A stretch of 64,000 nucleotides of DNA from Candidatus Hermodarchaeota archaeon (GCA_048885865.1 JBHLLF010000002.1:96001-160000), one strand, 5' to 3'. Positions 3,809-37,883 are shown, counted from the first letter of the stretch. Program-made: numbers and translations. The notes: generated by a model not told the origin, from the letters alone.

Positions 3809-5293
3809 ATGAGCAGATTAGCAAATGCAATAGGACTCCCAGATGCTAATGAAAAGGTTCTTCGATTAGCAAGGATCTTGATTTTCCTAGGCCCATTGGC
3901 TACATTCACTTTCACTATGTCGACCACCTTCTATCTGATTTTTGTCTCTGAAGCATTGGGTGGCGGCGATTATATCGCAGGCCTTCCCTTGGTAGCAACT
4001 CTTGTAGTCATCCAGATGGCCATTCAATTACTCCTGGACTACCCTACTGGTGCAATTGGAGACTGGATAGGACAGAAGTATATAGTATCATCAGCCACCA
4101 CGTGCTACGCTATTGCGTTTTGGTTAGTTTCACTGGTCACACCAACAACTCCATTCTGGTTCCTAGTCCTCATCTATGTAATTCAGGGCCTTGGCAACTC
4201 TCAGATGAGTGGAGCGCTTAACACATGGTTCGACAATAACTATAGAGTCGCCATGCCAGGTGACTCGGATAGAAAGCAGTATGGTATGTTTTGGGGAAGA
4301 GTCGGAGGAATGATGCAAGTCGTATCAACTGCAGCACTAATCCCTGGTAGCATCTTGGCTGCAGTCTTTGGTCGACCATGGGTATTCCAGCTGCAGGCTG
4401 TATTGGCTCTAGTCCTAACTATTCTCGGCCTCAGATTCATCACGGACTTTCCTGAGGTTCAGGCCGCACGACAACAGCGACCCACCATGAGTGGGTACAC
4501 CAAGATTCTGAAGGATGGTGTGAGCTATCTATGGAGTGAGCCCTTTGTCAAATACATCGTAATCGGATCAATGCTTGCCACCAGCTCGATAATGGTGTGG
4601 GGCAACCTTATCCTGTTCCCCATGTACTTCCTGTACCTTATCACTGACGTTGCTGTTGCATCGTTTCGGACTGTCCTATTCATTCCTGGGATTGCTGCAC
4701 AGGAAAGGTCTGGAGTTTGGTCTAGACGATTTGAACCCAAAATATGGATTCCTAGATTCCGACTTATTCAGACATGCGGGCTCGTGTTCTTCCTCGTCGT
4801 TTCATTCATAATGTTCCTATTTCCGCCTGCTACAAACGGTGGTCCGATGTTCAGCGTCGTTCTGCCTATTGCTAATGTGGAATTAATGCAGATACCAGTA
4901 GGCAACATCTTGCCGGTCGTGTTGCTCTTCTTTTCCTTCACTCTTACTGGCTTTTTTGGAGGATTTGCTGAGATTCTCACACAGAGGCAACTCCTTGATG
5001 CCATTCCAAATCGAATTAGGAACTCAATGTATTCCCTTTCTCCCACCATCGCAACCATATTTGCACTCCCACAGATCTGGTTCTTTGGATGGTTGATACC
5101 TACCATTGGATTTCCATTGACTCTACTGTTATGTGGAATGGTGTCTCTCATCGGTGTGTTACTGATACGCAAAGGTCTTCACCAGCCAAAGCCCGTTCTT
5201 GAAGAGGAGGCTTGGAGCAACAGCCAGCCGGAAGCCCAGGAAGTAATTGAAGAGATAGAAGAAGAGATGGCCCACGAACTGATTGAAGAGTAG
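3809..5293 (+). CDS. MFS transporter (tandem paralog 1)
   Basis: 494 aa multi-TM; DYPTGAIGDWIG motif A-like; acidic C-terminal tail. Confidence 0.88.
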   Translation: MSRLANAIGLPDANEKVLRLARILIFLGPLATFTFTMSTTFYLIFVSEALGGGDYIAGLPLVATLVVIQMAIQLLLDYPTGAIGDWIGQKYIVSSATTCYAIAFWLVSLVTPTTPFWFLVLIYVIQGLGNSQMSGALNTWFDNNYRVAMPGDSDRKQYGMFWGRVGGMMQVVSTAALIPGSILAAVFGRPWVFQLQAVLALVLTILGLRFITDFPEVQAARQQRPTMSGYTKILKDGVSYLWSEPFVKYIVIGSMLATSSIMVWGNLILFPMYFLYLITDVAVASFRTVLFIPGIAAQERSGVWSRRFEPKIWIPRFRLIQTCGLVFFLVVSFIMFLFPPATNGGPMFSVVLPIANVELMQIPVGNILPVVLLFFSFTLTGFFGGFAEILTQRQLLDAIPNRIRNSMYSLSPTIATIFALPQIWFFGWLIPTIGFPLTLLLCGMVSLIGVLLIRKGLHQPKPVLEEEAWSNSQPEAQEVIEEIEEEMAHELIEE

Positions 5294-5375: not shown

Positions 5376-6902
5376 ATGAGTAGGGTAGCGAGGTTATGTG
5401 GATTCAAGGACCCCAACGACAAAGTGGCTAGATTGGCGTGGATCATGGTTACACTTGGTCCCATCATTATCTTCACTCTAGTGATGTCTAGTACCTTCTA
5501 CATGATCTTCGTCGCGGACACACTTGGCGGTGGTCCGGGCATGTTCCTTGAAGGATTAGCTTTTGTTGGAGTCCTGGTAGTAATCCAGATGGTAGTGCAG
5601 ACACTGCTGGACTATCCAACAGGCACGTTGGGAGATATGATAGGTCATCGATTCGTAATCGCGTCAGCTTATCTCATCTATGGAGTCGCCTTTTACATAA
5701 CATCTCTTCTGACACCAACCACGCCCATCTTTATGTTCGTTCTCGTGTATGTCCTATGGGGACTTGCATATTCCCAGGAGAGCGGTGCATGGGACGCCTG
5801 GTTTGACAATAACTACCGAGTGGCAGCTCCTGATGATGTCGAACGAAAGGACTATGGAGTGTTCATGGGGCGGCTGGGGATGATTGCCACAGCACTTTCA
5901 ATGGCGGCATTGATTCCTGGCAGCATCCTAGCAGTTGTCTTCAGTCGAATGTGGGTCTTTCAAGCTTCAGCGATATTATGTGTTGGTACAGCAATTGCTG
6001 TCCTGATGCTTGTCAAGGATTTTCCCGAAGTTCAAGAAATGAGAGATGAGAAACCGTCTGTTCGCGAGTACTTCAGACTCTTGAAAACGGGAGCAAGTTT
6101 CATTGTGGGCGACCCCTTTGTCAAATATGTGATCTTTGGTGGGGTTGTTATCTGGAGCTGCGTCTTCGTATGGGGCGAGCTCATAATATTCCCCTTGTTG
6201 TTCGCGTATCTTGTGACTGATGTTGCTGTTGCCACATTCAGAACCCTGCTGAGAATTCCAGGTATGTTTACCACTGAACGAGCTGGTGTCTGGTCTCAGA
6301 AATTCAAGCCCGAGGAATGGATTCCCAAGTTCAGACTGATTCAGAATTGTGGCTTTGCCTGCTTCCTCATTTTTGCGGCTATCATGTATGTCTTCAATCC
6401 TGTGACTGGACCTGTGACTCTAGTGGATGTAATGGTACCTTTCACGGACTTTGTGATTATGCAGGTACCTCAGGAGTCTCTGCTTCCAACTACTTTGATG
6501 TTCCTGACATTTGTGATTGGCGGGTTCTTCTTTAATGCGGCAGACATTCTGACAATGAGGCTGATGATTGATGTTGTACCTACTAGTATTCGAAACAGTG
6601 TCTACTCGCTGACTCCCACCCTTGCTATAATAGTCGCCATTCCACAGATAGCTTTCTTCGGGGCTTCGATTCAGCATATCGGATTTCCAATTACACTTGC
6701 GATCACAGGTCTCATTTCGTTGGTTGGAGTTCTCATGATTCGAAAAGGCCTTTCATATCCAATTCCTATTACCGAGGAGCGGAAACAGGCTCTGGAACAA
6801 GCTGCTCAAGAACAGCAGGAGACCACAATTGAACAGACGGGCCAAGATTCTAGTATAAATCCCTCAGATGATGCAGTACAAATGCCATCTGGACAAGATT
6901 AA
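5376..6902 (+). CDS. MFS transporter (tandem paralog 2)
   Basis: 508 aa; shares LLDYPTG, WFDNNYRVA, PFVKY, TDVAVA, WIP-FRLIQ-CG blocks with the upstream gene. Confidence 0.88.
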   Translation: MSRVARLCGFKDPNDKVARLAWIMVTLGPIIIFTLVMSSTFYMIFVADTLGGGPGMFLEGLAFVGVLVVIQMVVQTLLDYPTGTLGDMIGHRFVIASAYLIYGVAFYITSLLTPTTPIFMFVLVYVLWGLAYSQESGAWDAWFDNNYRVAAPDDVERKDYGVFMGRLGMIATALSMAALIPGSILAVVFSRMWVFQASAILCVGTAIAVLMLVKDFPEVQEMRDEKPSVREYFRLLKTGASFIVGDPFVKYVIFGGVVIWSCVFVWGELIIFPLLFAYLVTDVAVATFRTLLRIPGMFTTERAGVWSQKFKPEEWIPKFRLIQNCGFACFLIFAAIMYVFNPVTGPVTLVDVMVPFTDFVIMQVPQESLLPTTLMFLTFVIGGFFFNAADILTMRLMIDVVPTSIRNSVYSLTPTLAIIVAIPQIAFFGASIQHIGFPITLAITGLISLVGVLMIRKGLSYPIPITEERKQALEQAAQEQQETTIEQTGQDSSINPSDDAVQMPSGQD

Positions 6903-6964
6903 TACCGCCAAATGTGGATGTTGCATGAAGGCTTACAGCCAGAATATATGAACACGCCAGAGGA

Positions 6965-7714
6965 TTGAATATGTCAGATCGCCCGCAGTTCCTTACGGTC
7001 ACATACTCTGACCGGGGTCTAGATACAATGGGCCATGAGAGAAAGATGGTCCGAGAGAAGGATGTCAAGTTTGATGGCGAGGATGGCTCATTGGAGCTCA
7101 CAGATATCAGACTTGTCTGGATAAAAAAGCCCTCAAGATGGGGTTCCGCGAAGAAATTTGGTGCCCTTGCTGGAGCAGTGGCTGGTGCCGCCCTATTGGA
7201 AGGAATAGGCAGAGAAATGGGTGGAATCGGAGGTAGAGCAGTAAGAAGCATAGGTCGAGGTGTAGGCTTTGCAGCAGTGGGTGCAGCTATTTCGTCATGG
7301 AGTTCTGATTCCTTCTACAACAAGGATGCAAATGGCAACACCGAGAGTCTTGCGATTCCAATACTTGCCATAAGCCAGGCAGCCCAGAGTGGAGATGAAC
7401 TGGTCATCGATCTAACTTCTGGAGGGAATTTGCGCTTTAAATTCAGGCAGAGGCGAGTCATTCCTTCAATCATGGCCAATATCTCATCAGCTCAAAATGC
7501 AGGCAAGTGTCCCTATTGTGGAGCTGGGAATGCATCCGGAGCCAACGCCTGTTCCAAGTGTGGTGCACCCCTTGCAGGCGGCGGCGGTGGTCCAGCAGAA
7601 GGCCACACTGAGAGTGTCACTATCTCCACGGGAGGCGGAGGCTTCTGTACAAACTGCGGTCAGCAATATCCTGCAGGAGCAAAGTTCTGCGGAAGTTGCG
7701 GCCAGAAAGTCTGA
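6965..7714 (+). CDS. Zinc-ribbon protein with glycine-zipper segment
   Basis: Two C-terminal zinc ribbons (CPYC..CSKC; CTNC..CGSC); Gly/Ala-rich hydrophobic segment within a beta-rich N-terminal domain. Confidence 0.75.
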   Translation: MNMSDRPQFLTVTYSDRGLDTMGHERKMVREKDVKFDGEDGSLELTDIRLVWIKKPSRWGSAKKFGALAGAVAGAALLEGIGREMGGIGGRAVRSIGRGVGFAAVGAAISSWSSDSFYNKDANGNTESLAIPILAISQAAQSGDELVIDLTSGGNLRFKFRQRRVIPSIMANISSAQNAGKCPYCGAGNASGANACSKCGAPLAGGGGGPAEGHTESVTISTGGGGFCTNCGQQYPAGAKFCGSCGQKV

Positions 7715-7759
7715 TTTCCGAGGATCTAGCAAGGTCTGGCTTATTCGCCAGACCCTCTC

Positions 7760-8587
7760 TCATCTAAAGAGGTCTTCCTCTTTTGCACGTGGTATGTCCC
7801 TAGCTGTTTCATGTCCTCTATTGTATTTGTAGCCTCTCAATACCACAATTGGCATTCCTTCGTCTGCTTGTCCCATCAAAGGTTCTGCTGCTGAAGCTAT
7901 CTCGTCAATCTGACAGACCATGGACCTTTGCATTGGCTTCCCATAGAGATCGAGCTTTCCTTTGTTATATTTGAACGCACTTATGCCAGCACATCCGAGA
8001 GCAATATTGATTGAGCCTTCTCTCCAAGGTCTGCCCTGTGTGTCAGTTATGATGACCGCCAGTTCGAAACCTGTTTGCTCCTCAAGATTCATCAGAATTG
8101 TAGCAGCACTTGCATCAGGGTCTTTTGGTAGCAAGATGAAGCTATCTGGAGGTGCATTTGATTTGTCTACTCCGCTAAAGTTGCAAATGAGGCCTGATTT
8201 GGTTTCAGTAATCAACACACCTTGGTTCCTTAAGACAACTCGGCTCTCTCTCAATGCCAGTTCGACCTGAACTGGATCGAAGCCATTAGATTCCGCAATC
8301 TCCTCTGCTCTACTAGAAATCTGAACAGAATCACGGTGCACGATTCTGCCTTCTGCCTTCGAGACGATGGAATGAGCTATAACAAGGACATCTCCCGGCT
8401 TCAAAGTAAGTCTGGATTTGCCTAGGCAGTCCAAGATCACAGAGGCTAGATTCATTCCTTTCTCAATCTCAGGGATACCTGGGATGCTAAATATCTGGAT
8501 TCCTAGTTGTGGCAACCTCTCATGTCTCAGAAATTCAGTAGGCATGGTGGCCGAAAAATCTACCTTTGGCCAATATATCTGGCCCAA
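7760..8587 (-). CDS. cofE: Coenzyme F420-0:L-glutamate ligase
   Basis: GDVLVIAHSIVSKAEG, SGVDKSN, LLPKDPDASA, IITDTQGRPWREG, DEIASAA motifs. Confidence 0.92.
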   Translation of the reverse strand: MGQIYWPKVDFSATMPTEFLRHERLPQLGIQIFSIPGIPEIEKGMNLASVILDCLGKSRLTLKPGDVLVIAHSIVSKAEGRIVHRDSVQISSRAEEIAESNGFDPVQVELALRESRVVLRNQGVLITETKSGLICNFSGVDKSNAPPDSFILLPKDPDASAATILMNLEEQTGFELAVIITDTQGRPWREGSINIALGCAGISAFKYNKGKLDLYGKPMQRSMVCQIDEIASAAEPLMGQADEGMPIVVLRGYKYNRGHETARDIPRAKEEDLFR

Positions 8588-8749
8588 ACCTATCCTAGAA
8601 GGGTATTATGACGGGAAAACAATAAATGGGATATAGAGGAACTCCTGAGAGTCAAGAAACACCGTATTGTGCCTTATCTGGGGTTATAAGTCGGTAAGGG
8701 AATGTCAAACCAATATGCTTGAGCACAGCTTTCAACGGAGCGAATTGCC

Positions 8750-10801
8750 ATGAGTTCAAAGGAGAAGAAATCCAAAAAGGCGAAGAAGAAATCTTCCCCT
8801 GGAAAAAAGACTACTACGGATTCAGTCGCTGCTGGAGCCGGAGCAGGGGATATTCGCCAGGGTACCATTGCCAAGTTCATGCGGAAAAGAACTCAGCTAG
8901 TGGGCTTTGAGACTGGTTTAAACAAGCATACCCAATTTGCAATCGAGTTCCTAGATAACGCAATTGACGCAGTGGAAAGCTGGTGGTGGAAGACTGGCAG
9001 ACATCCACGACTTGATGATCAATTGGATCCCAAGTATGTCGAAGAGATTCGAACAAAGCTTGAGGGAACCCTTCATGACTCAATTGCCCTTAGTAAGAAG
9101 CTTGAGAAGGATGTACGAGAGGGCAATGAAGTTGAAATTCCGCCACGACGGAGAGAAACTCTGCAGGACCGCCTTACAGACTTCAGGAAGTTTGTGGTTC
9201 CGTTTCGAGGCATGATTAACAGACGAGAGCCCCTGTGCGTCATTCAACTTACTGAGGTTCAGATGCCTGACCTAGTCCCGCTTGATGATGAAGAGGGATT
9301 CAAAGTCTACGAATTCATATGCTTTGATAATGGAGTAGGCATGGTTTCTTCAGATTTGGAGAAATTTGGAATCTACCTCGCCTCAAGCAAGTCCGAAAAA
9401 CTAAGGCAGACACGAGGCAGTCAGGGATTTGGTGCTCCTTCAGCCTTTAGCGACGCTCAGAATACAACTGGTAAGCCCATATTCACTATATCGAAGCGGT
9501 TCAACGGCAAAGAAGCCACCGTCACCGATTTCTATACAACTACTGCAAACACAAAGGAATATGTAAGTGGCCCAATCGACATGGAGCTTCCGTTTGAGCA
9601 TGGGACCTATATCAAACTCAACTATCTGAATATCCAGTATCGGCGTGGATATGCTGATACCTACTGTGAGATGGCATCATTGCTCAACTCTCACGTGACC
9701 ATTGTTTTCATCGATCCCTACGGGACAGTACACATCTATCCCAGAAGAGTGAAGGACTTTCCTGCTGAGCCGAAGTACGCTCAGCCTCATCCAGCAAGCA
9801 TCCGTATTGGTGAGTTTCAAGACCTACTTAGAGAATCTCCAGAGCCAGATTTGCGAAGCTTCCTAACCAAAGCCTTTGTGAGGTTGAGTGGAAACAAGGC
9901 AAAGACCATTATTGGGAATGCAAACAAGGAATTGCGTAGGCGACATCAGGATACACTAAGCCCTAAGACTCCTACAGACTCGCTCTCAAAGATGGAGATA
10001 GAATTGCTCTACAAGGCATTCTCTGGAGAGGACTACATAGCACCACCAACAGACACAGTAGTCCCAGTTGGAGAAGAGGTATTTGAGCAGACTATCCACA
10101 TGGCTTATGAGCCAGACTTCGCTACAGCAGTTACGAGAAAACCTACCTCTGGAAAAGGCCTCTCTTTTGCTGTTGAGGTGTGTATTGCGTATGGAGGGAG
10201 TATCAAACCCGCAACTTCTGCCCCAATGGTTCTGTGGCGGTTTGTGAACCGTGTTCCAAAGCTCAGAGACAACAGTGACTGCGCAACTTGGAAGGCAACC
10301 ACCTCGGTTAATTGGAAGAACTACAAGGTGCAGACCTTTGACAATGGCATTCCCCGAGGACCCATTATGGTGTTTATTCATGTGGCTGGAGCATACGTTC
10401 ACGTGATGTTCAAGGGACAGAGCAAGCAAGCACTAGCAGAAGATGAGGTGCTGCTACGTGAGATTAAGTTGGCTCTCGAAGATGCAGGTAGAAGATTTAG
10501 ACGCTTCATTACAAGACGTGAAACAGCCAAGCGAAAGGCAAAGCGTGCAGGAATTCTTGCTATGTATGCTGACCAGTTTTCGCAGAGCCTCGCCGCAATC
10601 GCAAATGATGGAAGGAAGAAACCATTGTTTGATGCTGAGATTGTTGCAAGGAAGATTCGTGACTCAATTACCGGGTTTGAAACTGCAGATGACCAAGAGG
10701 AAACTGAAACAGATGCAAGAGGTACTGATCTCGTTGCCGATGTTCCTCTTGGGGATGGCGATGAAGACTTCATTGAAGTATCAGTGGATGGTGGCGATTA
10801 A
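8750..10801 (+). CDS. top6B: DNA topoisomerase VI subunit B (divergent, with insertion in the GHKL domain)
   Basis: GHKL motifs EFLDNAIDA, DNGVGM, TRGSQGFG; PHP motif; RFVNRVP transducer; stop overlaps top6A start. Confidence 0.92.
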   Translation: MSSKEKKSKKAKKKSSPGKKTTTDSVAAGAGAGDIRQGTIAKFMRKRTQLVGFETGLNKHTQFAIEFLDNAIDAVESWWWKTGRHPRLDDQLDPKYVEEIRTKLEGTLHDSIALSKKLEKDVREGNEVEIPPRRRETLQDRLTDFRKFVVPFRGMINRREPLCVIQLTEVQMPDLVPLDDEEGFKVYEFICFDNGVGMVSSDLEKFGIYLASSKSEKLRQTRGSQGFGAPSAFSDAQNTTGKPIFTISKRFNGKEATVTDFYTTTANTKEYVSGPIDMELPFEHGTYIKLNYLNIQYRRGYADTYCEMASLLNSHVTIVFIDPYGTVHIYPRRVKDFPAEPKYAQPHPASIRIGEFQDLLRESPEPDLRSFLTKAFVRLSGNKAKTIIGNANKELRRRHQDTLSPKTPTDSLSKMEIELLYKAFSGEDYIAPPTDTVVPVGEEVFEQTIHMAYEPDFATAVTRKPTSGKGLSFAVEVCIAYGGSIKPATSAPMVLWRFVNRVPKLRDNSDCATWKATTSVNWKNYKVQTFDNGIPRGPIMVFIHVAGAYVHVMFKGQSKQALAEDEVLLREIKLALEDAGRRFRRFITRRETAKRKAKRAGILAMYADQFSQSLAAIANDGRKKPLFDAEIVARKIRDSITGFETADDQEETETDARGTDLVADVPLGDGDEDFIEVSVDGGD

Positions 10802-12954
10802 TGGCTCGCAAAAAGAAGTCCGAGAAGACTGAAACCATCCAAGAAACCCTTGGAGACCTCGTCGAAACCAAGAAGAAGCCAACAAAGAAGACCACGAAGA
10901 AAGCAACCTCCAAGGACTCTAAAAAGCCTGCAAAAGCGGCCGCCAAACCCAAAACCAAGACCAAACGCAAGAAGCCTGCCTCCAAAAAGGAGAAGCCATC
11001 CGAGAAACCCGCAAAGAAGCCTGCCGAAAAACCAGCTGCCGATGTGGCTCTCGAAGAATCTGGACTATCACTGAGGCTCTTGCCTGGTGTAGGTCAGAAA
11101 TTGGAAGAGAGACTCAAAGCCGCAAAGTATGACACAGTTGAGCAGATATCCAAGTCTCGGTCAAAGAGCATGGCAAGTAGGGTTGATGGTCTAAGCTTGT
11201 CAGGCGCCAAGAAACTGATAGATGCGGCAAAAGAATTGCTTAAGGGTGAAGCAAAGGGCGTCGTGATTGAGGAACCTTCGGCTGCCGAGGCCGATGTCGT
11301 TGATGATAGTCCAGAAACTAGACTCAAGCTAACTGATTTGCCCGGAGTTGGTGGAAAACTTGCTAAAGAACTTGAACGTTCCGGCTACAATACAGTGGCA
11401 AGATTGTCACGTTCTAGACCAAGCTCAGTAGCCAAAGTCGTTGACGGGCTAAGTCTAAAGAAGGCAACAACCCTTGTTGATGCTGCTATTGAACTCATCC
11501 GCGAAGCCGAGATGATTGCTATCTCTGAAACCATCGCTCCAAAGCCTGCCCCACCGGATGAGCCAAGGAAGGTGGAGGAACCGCCAGAGGTAAAACCTGA
11601 GAAGAAGGATGAACCAAAGCCTGAGAAGAAGGAACCACCAAAGGAAGCTCCGAAGAAGCCTACGATACCGAAAAAGCCGAAAAAACCTGAAAAGGAACCA
11701 GAAATCGATGTCCCTAAAAAGACAAAAGCGAAGAAGAAGAAGTCTGGTCTCCCCGTTCCCGATGCAGTAAAGGCCCTTGAAAAAGAAATGAAACGGAAGT
11801 GGAAGGCGGCTGAGAAACGCAAGCTCGCAATTGAGGCAGGAGAGCTTCCAGAGGAAGAGATTGAACCTCTGAAAGAAACTGTGGAGGTTGTTGGCCTTAC
11901 TTCTAATCAAACACAAGACACACTCGTGGATGTCGCAATGGAAGTCCTTAATGAGGCCATGTTAACTGGACGACCAGCTTTTGAGATTCCTAGCAGATCA
12001 AGTGATAATATCGTCTGGGATGAAATCAGAGACCTGCTTCTACTGGGGATGAAGACAGTTGCTCGACCCTACCATTCTCTTGCTTCAGTGGTAGATGCCA
12101 CCAGAACCGCAAGGGTCATGGAGATAGTCTTCCAACTCTTGAAGTCCAATCTGCATGCGACTAAACGAGAGGTCTTCTATAGTGATGTCAATCTGTTTCG
12201 TGAGCAAAAGAGGAGTGACAAGATTATCGAGGATGTAGCTTCTATGCTGCACACGACGCGTGACAGCATTCATGTAGTTGCTTCGGCTCGAGGTTCTGCG
12301 ATGGGAAGAGTTGTGATTCGCGATGGTGGTGACACAATTGATCTAACTCGAATGGGAACCGGCGGTTGGGCAATCACTCCCTTCTTGGATCAAGTTGAGA
12401 TTTTAGAGAGCGATGCCGAGTTCATACTGCTCTCTGAGAAAGATGCAGCAGTTATGCGATTGGCAGAGGCAAAGTATTGGAATAGGCAGCCATGCATAGT
12501 ATTGACAGGAAAAGGTTCAGGTGACATTGCAACTCGTGCCTTCCTACGTATGCTGGTGAAGGAACTGGAGATTCCCGCGTTCGCCTTAGTCGACTCAGAT
12601 CCTTATGGGCATTACATATACTCCGTCTTTCTGCGAGGTAGCAAGAGACTAAGCTATGAGTCTCCCTTCATTGCCACTCCTGAGTTGAAGCTTCTAGGCG
12701 TCCTGAGTCGTGACCTTGAGGAATATAACATTCCAAAATCTGTCAGGATACCAATGGAGCCAACTGACATCAAACGTGTCAGGGACATGCTCAACGAACC
12801 ATTCGTGCAGGCAAACAAAGCATGGGTGAAAGACCTGAAACTCATGTTAAAGCTCAAGGAGAAAGCAGAGATTCAGGCATTCGCGAGCCACAGCTTCGAG
12901 TACCTCACTGATGACTATTTGCCTCGCAAGCTAGAAACAGGGGATTGGATTTAA
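10801..12954 (+). CDS. top6A: DNA topoisomerase VI subunit A (Spo11 family) with a ~360-aa N-terminal extension (Lys-rich, 2x HhH, Pro/Glu/Lys linker)
   Basis: KREVFY catalytic Tyr, SEKDA and DSDPYG Toprim motifs, KAEIQAF C-terminal motif. Confidence 0.93.
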   Translation: MARKKKSEKTETIQETLGDLVETKKKPTKKTTKKATSKDSKKPAKAAAKPKTKTKRKKPASKKEKPSEKPAKKPAEKPAADVALEESGLSLRLLPGVGQKLEERLKAAKYDTVEQISKSRSKSMASRVDGLSLSGAKKLIDAAKELLKGEAKGVVIEEPSAAEADVVDDSPETRLKLTDLPGVGGKLAKELERSGYNTVARLSRSRPSSVAKVVDGLSLKKATTLVDAAIELIREAEMIAISETIAPKPAPPDEPRKVEEPPEVKPEKKDEPKPEKKEPPKEAPKKPTIPKKPKKPEKEPEIDVPKKTKAKKKKSGLPVPDAVKALEKEMKRKWKAAEKRKLAIEAGELPEEEIEPLKETVEVVGLTSNQTQDTLVDVAMEVLNEAMLTGRPAFEIPSRSSDNIVWDEIRDLLLLGMKTVARPYHSLASVVDATRTARVMEIVFQLLKSNLHATKREVFYSDVNLFREQKRSDKIIEDVASMLHTTRDSIHVVASARGSAMGRVVIRDGGDTIDLTRMGTGGWAITPFLDQVEILESDAEFILLSEKDAAVMRLAEAKYWNRQPCIVLTGKGSGDIATRAFLRMLVKELEIPAFALVDSDPYGHYIYSVFLRGSKRLSYESPFIATPELKLLGVLSRDLEEYNIPKSVRIPMEPTDIKRVRDMLNEPFVQANKAWVKDLKLMLKLKEKAEIQAFASHSFEYLTDDYLPRKLETGDWI

Positions 12955-34807: not shown

Positions 34808-35887
34808 ATGTCTGCCGAGCGTCAAAAGCTCAAGAGGAAGGTCCAACAGCTCAAGGCACTCCAAGGTAGGCATAGCTCTTTCACCACGCTCTACATCCCA
34901 CCGGCAAAAAGCCTAGTTGATGTTACTGGATTTGTAAAAGCGGAGCTGGCTGGGGCTGACAACATCAAGAGTAAAGCGAACAGAAAGAATGTGCAAGACA
35001 ATCTCACAGCAATTCTGAGTGAGCTCAATATGATCACAGCTATGCCTGAGAATGGCATGGCGTTCTTCTTTGGCATTATGGAAGAAGGTGGCACAACCGA
35101 AGAGATCCGGGAGATAGTCATTCCTCCTGCACCAATCTCACAGTTCACCTACATCTGTGGTCGTGAGTTCATAACCGATGAACTTGAAGAAATGACCCTG
35201 CCCAAGAGCTTAGTCGTCATAACTCTGATTGAGGGCGGAAAGGTTACCATTGGATACCTGCGTGGTAAGCACATGGAACTCGTCCGCGATGAGGACTTCT
35301 ACATCATAGGAAAGACTCGTGCAGGCGGTCAGAGTGCTAAGCGATATTTGCGTATCAGAGAGGAAAAGATGTTGGAGTTCTTCCGACATGTGGGTAGAAT
35401 GCTGAAGGACCTCCTGCTTGATAATATTGACAACGTGGATGCGATTGTGCTTGGCGGTAACACAATAAGATGTCAGGAATTCCTGGAGAAAGGTGACCTA
35501 GACTATCGAATTCGAGAGAAGATTGCAGAAACCATTATTCCAGTAAGCGTCATAGATGAAACCGGACTCTATCAAGCAATGAAAGAGGCATCCCGGCTTC
35601 TCAAGGAAACCGAGATTTATGCTGAGCGTCAGATATGGGATGGATTCATGGAAGCTCTCATGAAGGGGGAGAATGATGTTGCATATGGCGAAAAGGAAGT
35701 GCTGGATGCTCTCAGGGCCGGCCGCGTTGAAACAATAATGGTCACTGAAGATAACACTGACCTCATAGATTCTCTATATAATGAGATTGGTGACTACGGC
35801 TCTGAATTGATGGTATTCTCTGCTCAAACAGAATCAGGTGCACAATTGAAATCATTCGGAGGCGTTGCTGCGCGCCTTCGTTGGTAA
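34808..35887 (+). CDS. prf1: Peptide chain release factor aRF1 (short form)
   Basis: NIKS, YICGREF (YxCxxxF), GGQS, FGGVAARLRW. Confidence 0.9.
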   Translation: MSAERQKLKRKVQQLKALQGRHSSFTTLYIPPAKSLVDVTGFVKAELAGADNIKSKANRKNVQDNLTAILSELNMITAMPENGMAFFFGIMEEGGTTEEIREIVIPPAPISQFTYICGREFITDELEEMTLPKSLVVITLIEGGKVTIGYLRGKHMELVRDEDFYIIGKTRAGGQSAKRYLRIREEKMLEFFRHVGRMLKDLLLDNIDNVDAIVLGGNTIRCQEFLEKGDLDYRIREKIAETIIPVSVIDETGLYQAMKEASRLLKETEIYAERQIWDGFMEALMKGENDVAYGEKEVLDALRAGRVETIMVTEDNTDLIDSLYNEIGDYGSELMVFSAQTESGAQLKSFGGVAARLRW

Positions 35888-35890
35888 TCA

Positions 35891-36304
35891 TTATTCCTTC
35901 GGAATGCGTGGTATTTCACGAAGCATGTCTATATCCTCAGCCCATGCTACAAGCTCTTTGCCCATATTCTCCAAGTACTGAAGGAGAACGACTTGATATT
36001 TGTGCAGATGATGTTGCTCTAGTTTCTTCTGCTTCTCAACAAAATCTCTTACTCTTCTAGGAAGTCCTGCGCTCCATCGCCTGACAGCCATTTCGGCCTT
36101 CCGATCGCCAAGAACCCTCTTAGCCGTCCTCGACCTCCGTTTCAAAACCAGAATGTGTTCAAGAGTCCTCTGAACTGCAATTATGGCTGCGACAAGTTCC
36201 TTTGCATCGGCCTTAAGGCTCTCATTTCGAGTTGTGTAGTATATCTCTTTGATAAGTCGCTTGGCTTTGATCACGTAGTTCAGCAGTTCTATCATCTCTT
36301 GCAT
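35891..36304 (-). CDS. Helical hypothetical protein
   Basis: ORF to 36397; ATG 36304 is preceded by GGAGG; co-oriented downstream of the Cas4-like pair. Confidence 0.7.
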   Translation of the reverse strand: MQEMIELLNYVIKAKRLIKEIYYTTRNESLKADAKELVAAIIAVQRTLEHILVLKRRSRTAKRVLGDRKAEMAVRRWSAGLPRRVRDFVEKQKKLEQHHLHKYQVVLLQYLENMGKELVAWAEDIDMLREIPRIPKE

Positions 36305-36342
36305 GCTTTTAGCCTCCACATCTAGAGAGATTACTCTTTTGC

Positions 36343-37008
36343 CTATGCAGCTGAGCGGTTGCAGATGCCGTTTCTTCCATACGGACAGGCTCTGCACTTC
36401 TCTTTGCTAGGACTGGCCTTCGGTTTTCTCCCCTGATACCAGACCTCATCAAGTTTTGCCAAGGCCTTCAAAACTTGCCTCTGATTGAATCTTCTGCTAT
36501 ATACCATCGCATCTCCACATGACACGCAATCAACCTGATTTTTCCCGATACAATTCTTTGCAGTCCTCTGCGAACAATATACGAGAACCAGCCTTGCACT
36601 GGCACATGAAACTCCAGTTTCCATAAGGGCAAGTGCGTATAGCCCTGCTTGGAAGAGGTCCTCTTCCCTGGGCTTAAGCGGACTATGTTTCATGGGGAAC
36701 TTCCGTTCTATGATGGCATCAAGCACTGGTACCTCTTCCCAATGCAGGACAGCGTTGTCAAACCTACCATTGAACCTGTGTCCCAATGAATAGACTGATT
36801 GTTCACTGAATAGAAAGGACCTTTTGGATTCTGGCTTCCTTCTTAATCTGAGGAACTCTTGAAGTGTCCATCTACTTGTTTCCGCACCTCTTATGCGCCT
36901 TCCACTTGAAAGGAGGATTCCTCCGGAGTTCATATAGATTAAGGCAAAAACGCCTCCAATGAACATGAAAAATAGAATGCCATTTGTGAATGGGTCCATT
37001 TGCATCAT
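36343..37008 (-). CDS. Cas4-like PD-(D/E)xK nuclease, C-terminal part, with N-terminal TM helix
   Basis: GRFD, IERK, QAGLY (QxxxY), C-terminal CRACPYGRNGIC; start overlaps the upstream stop (ATGA). Confidence 0.75.
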   Translation of the reverse strand: MMQMDPFTNGILFFMFIGGVFALIYMNSGGILLSSGRRIRGAETSRWTLQEFLRLRRKPESKRSFLFSEQSVYSLGHRFNGRFDNAVLHWEEVPVLDAIIERKFPMKHSPLKPREEDLFQAGLYALALMETGVSCASARLVLVYCSQRTAKNCIGKNQVDCVSCGDAMVYSRRFNQRQVLKALAKLDEVWYQGRKPKASPSKEKCRACPYGRNGICNRSAA

Positions 37009-37259
37009 CCCACCACCCATAGAACAGCTGCTGCTATAGTTCCAATCAAAATCAATGCTCTAATCAAACGACTGAACGATCGGACAGGTTTTGGATTCAA
37101 CCCCACTTCGCGATGAAGTCGTTCGCCATCTCTACTAGCTTCAGAGGGGCTCTCTCGGCGCATCTGTAGTAATAAGAATCTATGTTCGCAGAGATACTGG
37201 ATGCGAAGTTCAGACACATCTCGATATCGTCCCAATGGGCCCCTCTTAGGATCCTTCAT
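37005..37259 (-). CDS. Cas4-like N-terminal fragment with C-terminal TM helix
   Basis: VSELRIQYLCEHR (first Fe-S Cys) and DGERLH (motif I His), then LILIGTIAAAVLWVVG. Confidence 0.65.
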   Translation of the reverse strand: MKDPKRGPLGRYRDVSELRIQYLCEHRFLLLQMRRESPSEASRDGERLHREVGLNPKPVRSFSRLIRALILIGTIAAAVLWVVG

Positions 37260-37451: not shown

Positions 37452-37883
37452 ATGGGTGATATGATGTCTGAAGACTACGATGGAGCTACGGCTGGCAGAG
37501 TTCTCGTTTTTGATGCCAACGAGACTGTAAGGTTTCCAGCACAATTCAAAGACGCCATGGGAACCAATAACGGGTTGATGGTGCTAGTACACAAGGACCG
37601 ACTCATCAAGATCTTCCCGCTCGAAGACAAAGAGGTAAGCTTTCTGTCGGTCGAGATTAAAAAACTTACAAATGACTTCTTAACACAGCTCTCGCAGGTC
37701 TTCAAATCAGCAGGCCTAGTCGATTTGCTATTTTCAACAGGTGTCTGCCTTCGTGGCACAAGATGTTTCTATGAGTGCTACTTCAATCCCGGACAGCTTA
37801 CGAATACTTTGGATGATCTGAGGAACGAACTTGCTGCACTAGAAGGTGTCAGCTATGTCCACATAGAGAATGTTCATTCATGA
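37452..37883 (+). CDS. Putative AbrB/SpoVT-like plus ACT-like regulator
   Basis: FDANETVRFPAQFKDAMG resembles AbrB; the C-terminal beta-alpha-beta-beta-alpha-beta ending LEGVSYVHI resembles ACT. Confidence 0.55.
   Translation: MGDMMSEDYDGATAGRVLVFDANETVRFPAQFKDAMGTNNGLMVLVHKDRLIKIFPLEDKEVSFLSVEIKKLTNDFLTQLSQVFKSAGLVDLLFSTGVCLRGTRCFYECYFNPGQLTNTLDDLRNELAALEGVSYVHIENVHS

Follow-up and report, generated by a model that had tools for sequence, protein, structure and literature searches.

How can a nuclease domain that is ordinarily one fold in one chain be encoded as two short membrane proteins? This question is raised by a 64-kb window, i.e., the whole stretch of DNA that was analyzed, from a Thorarchaeota (Asgard archaeon) genome that is 87% complete. 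Between positions 35891 and 37259, the original prediction had recognized a Cas4-type nuclease split into two polypeptides, with one transmembrane (TM) helix each at the break. Every open reading frame (ORF) and motif of that prediction is present, and the split is upheld by its conservation and by colinear mapping onto single-chain relatives. The two ORFs, named o1 and o2, probably encode the two parts of a single “iron-staple” DNA nuclease, Cas4/Exo5-like and of RecB fold, which would function only as a heterodimer tethered to the membrane. Their features, in nucleotide positions of the window, are as follows.

37005-37259, minus strand: o1, the N-terminal nuclease half of 84 amino acids (aa), with a putatively cytoplasmic helix bearing Cys24 and the RecB motif I residue His49, then a tail-anchor TM helix.
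37188-37190, minus strand: Cys24 codon of o1, in the QYLCE motif (Q21, C24, E25).
37113-37115, minus strand: His49 codon of o1, in G..LH, RecB motif I (G45, L48, H49).
37011-37067, minus strand: o1 TM helix (residues 65-83, one residue short of the C terminus), predicted N-in/C-out.
36997-37020, minus strand: o1/o2 junction, with the o1 stop codon TGA at 37005-37007 and in-frame o2 ATGs at 37020, 37008, 37005, and 36999.
36343-37020, minus strand: o2, the C-terminal nuclease half with a RecB-like PD-(D/E)xK core, 225 aa if the longest ORF is taken, 218 aa if translation begins at M8.
36934-36990, minus strand: TM helix of o2 (residues 11-29), followed by basic RRIR, predicted N-out/C-in.
36517-36576, minus strand: extra four-Cys insert of o2 (C149, C157, C165, C168), a putative second metal site for Zn or a further iron-sulfur (Fe-S) cluster.
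36361-36396, minus strand: C-terminal triad of o2, C209-x2-C212-x7-C220, which with Cys24 of o1 makes a 1+3 “iron staple.”

The residues characteristic of RecB-like nucleases are all found, but they are shared out between the two ORFs. RecB motifs II (D88, in G85-R-F-D88), III (E105-x-K107), and QhxxY (Q124 and Y128) are in o2, which has further cysteines at positions 139, 149, 157, 165, and 168, while the metal-binding His of motif I (H49) and the N-terminal cluster Cys (C24) are on the separate polypeptide o1. R13, V15, L18, Q21, C24, E25, G45, L48, and H49 are invariant in 21 o1 homologues, as are D88, E105, K107, Q124, Y128, C209, C212, and C220 in 30 o2 homologues. The four cysteines of the extra insert are likewise invariant (30/30); an insert in the same place with different spacing occurs in 2 of 10 single-chain relatives (P0105 and P0121) and is absent from the other eight. 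In the Cas4 protein SSO0001, the metal ligands are His62, Asp99, and Glu113, and the cluster is held by one plus three cysteines (PMC4176176). Since the cluster ligands, and likewise the motif I His and motifs II, III, and QxxxY, are split over o1 and o2, both the cluster and the active site must assemble in trans.

Each half maps onto its own segment of ordinary nucleases. In profile searches the members of the split clade score below 1e-30, and after a large gap come ordinary proteins of ~250 aa at ~1e-6; these single-chain relatives match Pfam Exo5, PDDEXK_1, and Cas_Cas4. With hhalign, o1 residues 10 to 54 align to single-chain residues 26 to 70 (alignment A4; probability 95.7%, E value 8.5e-9), and o2 residues 80 to 225 align to residues 101 to 251 of the same alignment (probability 99.4%, E value 2e-21). 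As the two were aligned separately to successive segments, both are colinear with one single chain. C24 and H49 of o1 fall on the C and H of these relatives, and the o2 triad falls on the KCRxCxYxxxC end that they have in common with human EXO5, which is also the best Protein Data Bank (PDB) sequence match of the o2 profile (E value 0.0034). The Cas4 models of PADLOC match o2 at E values of 3.3e-8 to 2e-6, from about profile position 50 onward only. As for Exo5 (PF09810), o2 has no match to this Pfam family, and its nearest single-chain relatives score 23.7 to 37.6 bits against a cutoff of 25. Their contigs are shorter than 2 kb, so that gene context is uninformative.

Structural comparisons agree with this picture. 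The AlphaFold2 (AF2) model of o2 has a predicted local distance difference test (pLDDT) score of 84 and a helix at residues 10 to 32; when o2 is modeled alone, the C-terminal Cys loop is poorly ordered (pLDDT 50 to 65). The model matches Cas4-Cas1 (7mi4_A; Z score 10.1, root mean square deviation 5.4, 124 residues, from chain residue 55), MGME1 (Z score 8.4), EXO5 (Z score 7.4), AdnAB, and Dna2, and in Foldseek the type I-C Cas4 8d3l_I (E value 2.9e-4). These matches begin at about residue 55 of Cas4, which indicates that the N-terminal part is missing from o2. Searches with o1 were less productive: per-member Pfam scans of its homologues gave single weak matches to Dna2, PDDEXK_1, and Exo5 (E values of ~0.05 to 0.09 in one member each, not significant), and a PDB profile search gave a chance kinase match only. 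A search of PHROGs gave no match.

The split was traced in the orthologous loci of 16 other genomes of the same GTDB family, with o2 identities between 36 and 88%. Each of the 17 loci, our own included, encodes the N-terminal piece and the nuclease core in separate ORFs that differ in frame. Relative to o1, the frame of o2 is offset by +2 in 12 loci and by +1 in the remaining 5, and a start codon in the o2 frame always lies between −16 and +5 nucleotides (nt) from the o1 stop. Given two frame offsets at a kept junction, neither one sequencing error nor a conserved programmed frameshift site can explain the split. None of the 17 loci holds a single continuous gene, and a frameshift artifact is thus excluded; the conservation in other Asgard genomes, on which the original prediction was to be checked, extends to the two ORFs and their TM pair within a single family. 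Independent gene callers likewise predict an o1 gene of 76 to 92 aa, and one of 79 to 84 aa in metagenome contigs. Both genes are under purifying selection, with ratios of nonsynonymous to synonymous substitution rates (dN/dS) of 0.13 to 0.38 for o1 and 0.11 to 0.31 for o2. Judged from the sequences, recurrence in 17/17 loci together with the invariant motif residues is far beyond chance. A fused form was found neither among 123- to 394-aa proteins nor in a profile search of 1.8 billion cluster representatives, in which the matches below 1e-30 were all of ~200 to 250 aa. One 312-aa protein from the former search (P0040) was considered as a fused form and rejected, as its N terminus lacks the o1 motifs and is merely an upstream extension in the o2 frame.

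At the junction itself, o1 ends in LWVVG followed by TGA, and a Shine-Dalgarno-like GGTGGTGGGA lies upstream. The ATGA overlap by which o2 had been said to begin does exist (ATG at 37008 over the TGA at 37007-37005, after GGTGGTGG), but it is only one of four in-frame ATGs. The likeliest start appears to be M8 at 36999, 5 nt past the o1 stop, because the homologues mostly begin at a Met preceding Asp-Pro. In many loci the last Gly codon and the stop codon of o1 read GGGTGA, which is Shine-Dalgarno-like and lies 5 to 8 nt before the o2 start; together with the spacing of 0 to 5 nt, this suggests translational coupling of o1 and o2.

The position of the break coincides with two hydrophobic segments. 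Residues 65 to 83 of o1 have a mean Kyte-Doolittle value of 2.45, and a hydrophobic C-terminal 19-mer is present in 21/21 o1 homologues, with means of 2.2 to 3.1 and at most three residues after it. The flank before this segment is basic across the homologues (38 K/R vs. 12 D/E). Around the o2 TM segment of full-length homologues, the charges are distributed the other way, with 5 K/R vs. 28 D/E upstream and 55 K/R vs. 10 D/E downstream. Hydrophobicity and the positive-inside rule thus predict o1 to be N-in/C-out and o2 N-out/C-in, topologies in which the soluble parts of both proteins would lie on the cytoplasmic side, where an Fe-S enzyme has to be.

Complex prediction with o2, o1, and one 4Fe-4S cluster as input (custom alignments, three runs) gave an interface score (ipSAE) of 0.87 in each run, vs. 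0.00 for the best control; the ipSAE mark applied is reached by 58/80 solved complexes and by 2/110 mismatched pairs. At least 84% of contacts are shared between the runs, and the partner has a pLDDT of at least 67. Three contact regions are predicted. The TM segments pack together (o2 residues 13 to 30 with o1 residues 67 to 81); o1 residues 18 to 30, including C24, face o2 residues 200 to 222, including C212 and C220 (with residues 208, 212 to 214, and 219 to 220 of o2 in the predicted interface); and o1 residues 44 to 53, including H49, face o2 residues 82 to 88, including D88, as well as 106 and 108. Since the fold that is divided between o1 and o2 has been solved in single-chain proteins, the score may reflect likeness to those structures; with this proviso, the models support binding of o1 to o2. 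The halves thus co-fold in prediction, as had been anticipated, and the assembly in trans through paired TM helices that the original prediction envisaged is supported by the divided ligands and active site, the TM helices, and the predicted interface.

We therefore envisage the following arrangement as a working model. The abutting or overlapping cistrons would probably couple the translation of o1 and o2. The tail-anchored o1 would supply the N-terminal helix with C24, the first cysteine of the cluster, and H49, the metal-binding residue of motif I, while o2, anchored by its N-terminal helix, would supply D88, E105, K107, QxxxY, the three C-terminal cluster cysteines, and the extra four-Cys site. 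The two TM helices would pair as in a hairpin whose outer loop has been severed, and the soluble parts would rebuild one nuclease domain on the cytoplasmic face, with the Fe-S cluster and the active site bridging both chains. We infer cluster binding and nuclease activity of the pair. Several points weigh against such an assignment. The o2 protein scores below the curated cutoffs of the Cas4 families (14.5 vs. 22.7 bits for PF01930 and 25.9 vs. 65 for TIGR00372), o1 alone has no match in Pfam or NCBIfam, and assembly, Fe-S binding, nuclease activity, and membrane insertion are all predictions from sequence and models.

To see where the pair occurs, 400 genomes of the phylum were surveyed. The o2 gene is present in 69 of the 85 other genomes of its own family (70/86 with the own genome), always in single copy; in other families of the phylum none was found among the 400 genomes, bar three weak matches to ordinary proteins of ~290 to 314 aa. 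The pair always occupies the same syntenic slot, even in the most divergent members. Cas1 is encoded in 19/86 genomes of the family vs. 70/86 for o2, and in the own genus in 0/16 vs. 11/16. No CRISPR-like repeat array is present in the window, and neither Cas1 nor a canonical Cas4 was found in the own genome at its 87% completeness, which bears out the absence of CRISPR context noted originally. The own genome also lacks a second member of the split-nuclease clade. Its only other PDDEXK_1-type match (G000:C25:33501-33695, L027; 24.1 bits) lies in a 244-aa open frame and belongs to a separate, putative nuclease. The o1-o2 pair is hence chromosomal, nonmobile, lineage specific, and independent of CRISPR.

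Some genomes have lost the pair. In genus g29 (three genomes, 96 to 99% complete) and in genus g23, o1-o2 are missing and 90 to 170 nt stand in their stead, while the order of the pelota-like gene, a third ORF (o3, see below), and a 143-aa protein gene is intact. Genome G018 (L021, G018:C39, positions 3895 to 4420) contains a decayed o1 relic: the motifs are kept up to the Cys, but neither G..LH nor the TM helix survives, and o2 has been deleted. What is left, ~400 nt, codes for a peptide that ends like the C terminus of the TnpB-like protein of locus L023; because of this resemblance, the o2 deletion may be transposon related. In a tree of the pelota-like neighbor, the pair-less genomes lie inside the family and not at its base, which hints at losses, but with unresolved forks and a long outgroup branch this tree is not relied on. 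Repeated loss, together with faster evolution, indicates that o1-o2 are dispensable.

What would such an enzyme do? A membrane-fixed DNA-end nuclease would meet mainly DNA that crosses the membrane, and we therefore propose, tentatively, that the pair trims or degrades incoming DNA of viral, plasmid, or environmental origin. Two observations count against this role: the pair sits, single copy and vertically inherited, at one fixed chromosomal site among housekeeping genes, and no defense island, mobile-element partner, or transporter partner was found at the locus. Indeed, a lineage-specific housekeeping role would account just as well for the fixed housekeeping locus and for vertical inheritance. 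According to this alternative, which we regard as possible but somewhat doubtful, the membrane-tethered o1-o2 process 5′ ends or flaps during replication, repair, or chromosome handling, in the manner of eukaryotic EXO5 and MGME1. Beyond the locus and the presence in 69 of the 85 other family genomes, it is favored by the EXO5 match of the o2 profile, by the Pfam Exo5 matches of the closest single-chain relatives, and by the lack of another clade member in the genome. On the other hand, the pair can be dispensed with, as is shown by its clean loss in complete genomes (g29 and g23) and its decay in G018; o1-o2 evolve several times faster than their housekeeping neighbors; the pair is restricted to one family; and a housekeeping role leaves the membrane attachment of a repair nuclease without explanation.

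A narrower form of the incoming-DNA proposal can be modeled on SNIPE, an E. coli anti-phage nuclease that is held constitutively at the cytoplasmic membrane and can distinguish foreign DNA from self DNA by where it is as a genome enters (PMC13190303). The o1-o2 pair would then be an innate, location-based immune nuclease that destroys viral or plasmid DNA at the membrane, an archaeal and evolutionarily independent counterpart of SNIPE, in which the extra four-Cys site could provide redox-sensitive assembly or activity. We consider this unlikely.

The original prediction had further combined o1 and o2 with the downstream helical ORF into a possible three-gene system. This third gene is as follows.

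35891-36304, minus strand: o3, a 137-aa soluble four-helix bundle, starting with the Met at 36304, with GGAGG 9 nt upstream (longest ORF, 36397-35891).

The start at 36304 was chosen because the relatives in loci L004, L007, and L008 have stops upstream of that Met and because of the GGAGG before it. A single machine of o1, o2, and o3 that processes incoming DNA is quite improbable. In its favor, o3 lies 38 nt after o2 on the same strand with no T-run between them, so that the genes may be cotranscribed, and the order o1-o2-o3 is kept in 16/17 loci. However, o3 is found in 75/85 family genomes, including those of g29 (3/3) and g23 that lack o1-o2 in the same slot, as well as in G025, a genome from a sister family. 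In every case, G025 included, o3 and the pelota-like gene converge, 3 to 17 nt apart. In genome G014, a 12-kb insertion parts o2 from o3. Its dN/dS is 0.03 to 0.10 vs. 0.11 to 0.38 for o1 and o2, i.e., it evolves 3 to 5 times more slowly. An obligate three-gene system is thus not supported: o1-o2 are a two-gene cassette beside an older and more widely distributed backbone gene, o3, which is not an obligate part of the cassette and may have its link with pelota and ribosome rescue instead. The o3 protein is very strongly conserved; no TM segment was found in it, and its AF2 model (pLDDT 91.5) is a basic four-helix bundle without a family match. Fold matches to a designed repeat (Z score 13.1), IncA (Z score 12.8), and MLKL and CC-NLR (Z score of ~10) were set aside as generic bundles, in a range that is uninformative for helical bundles.

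The G014 insertion (L023, G014:C220, 840 to 12940) contains genes for an ABC-transporter ATPase and two permease-like proteins, a 1,763-aa protein of no assigned kind (5623-10914, minus strand), and a 609-aa TnpB/IS605-OrfB-like protein (11093-12922, plus strand) whose 3′ end abuts o3. In the window, the three minus-strand ORFs are flanked by the pelota-like eRF1-family gene (34808-35887, plus strand) and, beside o1, by a divergent operon for the 143-aa protein without a family match, a VTT/DedA-type membrane protein, and a CpXC protein. The pelota-like protein has 359 aa, a pelota-like length, with eRF1-family domains 1 to 3, and is 72 to 98% conserved across the family; its gene adjoins pheS and pheT. 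The 143-aa protein (37452-37883, plus strand) has no Pfam match and is 97 to 100% identical within the genus and 59 to 73% identical across the family; its gene is always the divergent neighbor of o1, or of o3 where o1-o2 are missing. Elsewhere in the window, a 24-nt tandem repeat of 2.2 copies at 11592-11643 is the sole tandem or short-range direct repeat that was found.

The pair might also have kept the fold without being a nuclease, as a membrane-bound Fe-S or redox-sensing protein or a structural protein. The eight or nine conserved cysteines, including the extra invariant four-Cys site, would suit such a function, and in several Cas4 proteins the cluster is dispensable for cleavage (PMC4176176, PMC12501428). 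Yet the catalytic residues of RecB motifs I, II, and III and of QxxxY are all invariant across the homologues, which is not expected of an inactivated enzyme and argues for an active nuclease; we therefore hold this explanation to be very improbable. That o1-o2 arose by a sequencing or assembly frameshift, or are a decaying pseudogene of an ordinary single-chain Cas4, is scarcely credible. The two frames do share up to 16 nt, and G018 does carry a decayed relic, but the split is kept, with two frame offsets, in 17 independent assemblies, both halves have a dN/dS of 0.11 to 0.38, each has at the break a conserved TM helix found in no single-chain relative, and no fused form was found in the databases searched.

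In comparison with known systems, the membrane-tethered, split nuclease proposed here is closest to Cas4 and Exo5-like proteins. Like solo-Cas4, o1-o2 are encoded away from cas genes; the Cas4 and solo-Cas4 proteins considered (PF01930 and TIGR00372; SSO0001 [4IC1], Pcal_0546, 8D3L, 7MI4, and the Methanosarcina mazei Solo-Cas4) differ from a pair that consists of two polypeptides with a TM helix on each side of the break, has the extra invariant four-Cys insert, and remains below the family cutoffs. A phylogenomic survey of Cas4 mentions neither a TM nor a split form (PMC5704561), and our literature search turned up no Cas4-family nuclease described as split or membrane anchored. The closest detectable sequence relatives, the Exo5-like/PDDEXK_1 proteins of ~250 aa (A4) and human EXO5 (7LW7), share Q..YCE, G..LH, ExK, QAxLY, and the KCRxCxYxxxC end with o1-o2, but they are soluble and single chain, without a TM hairpin, and the Cys-rich insert is found in 2/10 of them, with other spacing. 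The iron-staple domains of AddB, Dna2, and AdnAB have the same fold and cluster arrangement, but they are C-terminal in large soluble helicase-nuclease machines, and no helicase partner is present at the o1-o2 locus. The likeness to SNIPE is in concept only, as SNIPE is bacterial and built of unrelated domains (DUF4041 and another nuclease); in PADLOC, o2 matches Cas4 models alone and neither o1 nor o3 has a match, with no SNIPE-type or other defense family among the results.

To the original prediction, the present analysis adds the backbone gene o3 and its difference in rate from o1-o2, the loss of the pair in g29, g23, and G018, and the independence from Cas1. According to PMC12988326, archaeal defense repertoires are poorly characterized. 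The o1-o2 pair is a candidate with which a location-based treatment of DNA entering archaeal cells can be tested. If the proposed assembly is true, the pair would be a natural nuclease rebuilt in trans at the membrane with an intersubunit iron staple, and a lineage-specific trait of the Thorarchaeaceae, relatives of the eukaryotic ancestor. The iron-staple nucleases Cas4, AddB, Dna2, and EXO5 are known as soluble single-chain domains; in o1-o2, the same fold is cut in two at a pair of TM helices, and its Fe-S cluster would be shared by two polypeptides, as would its catalytic metal site.

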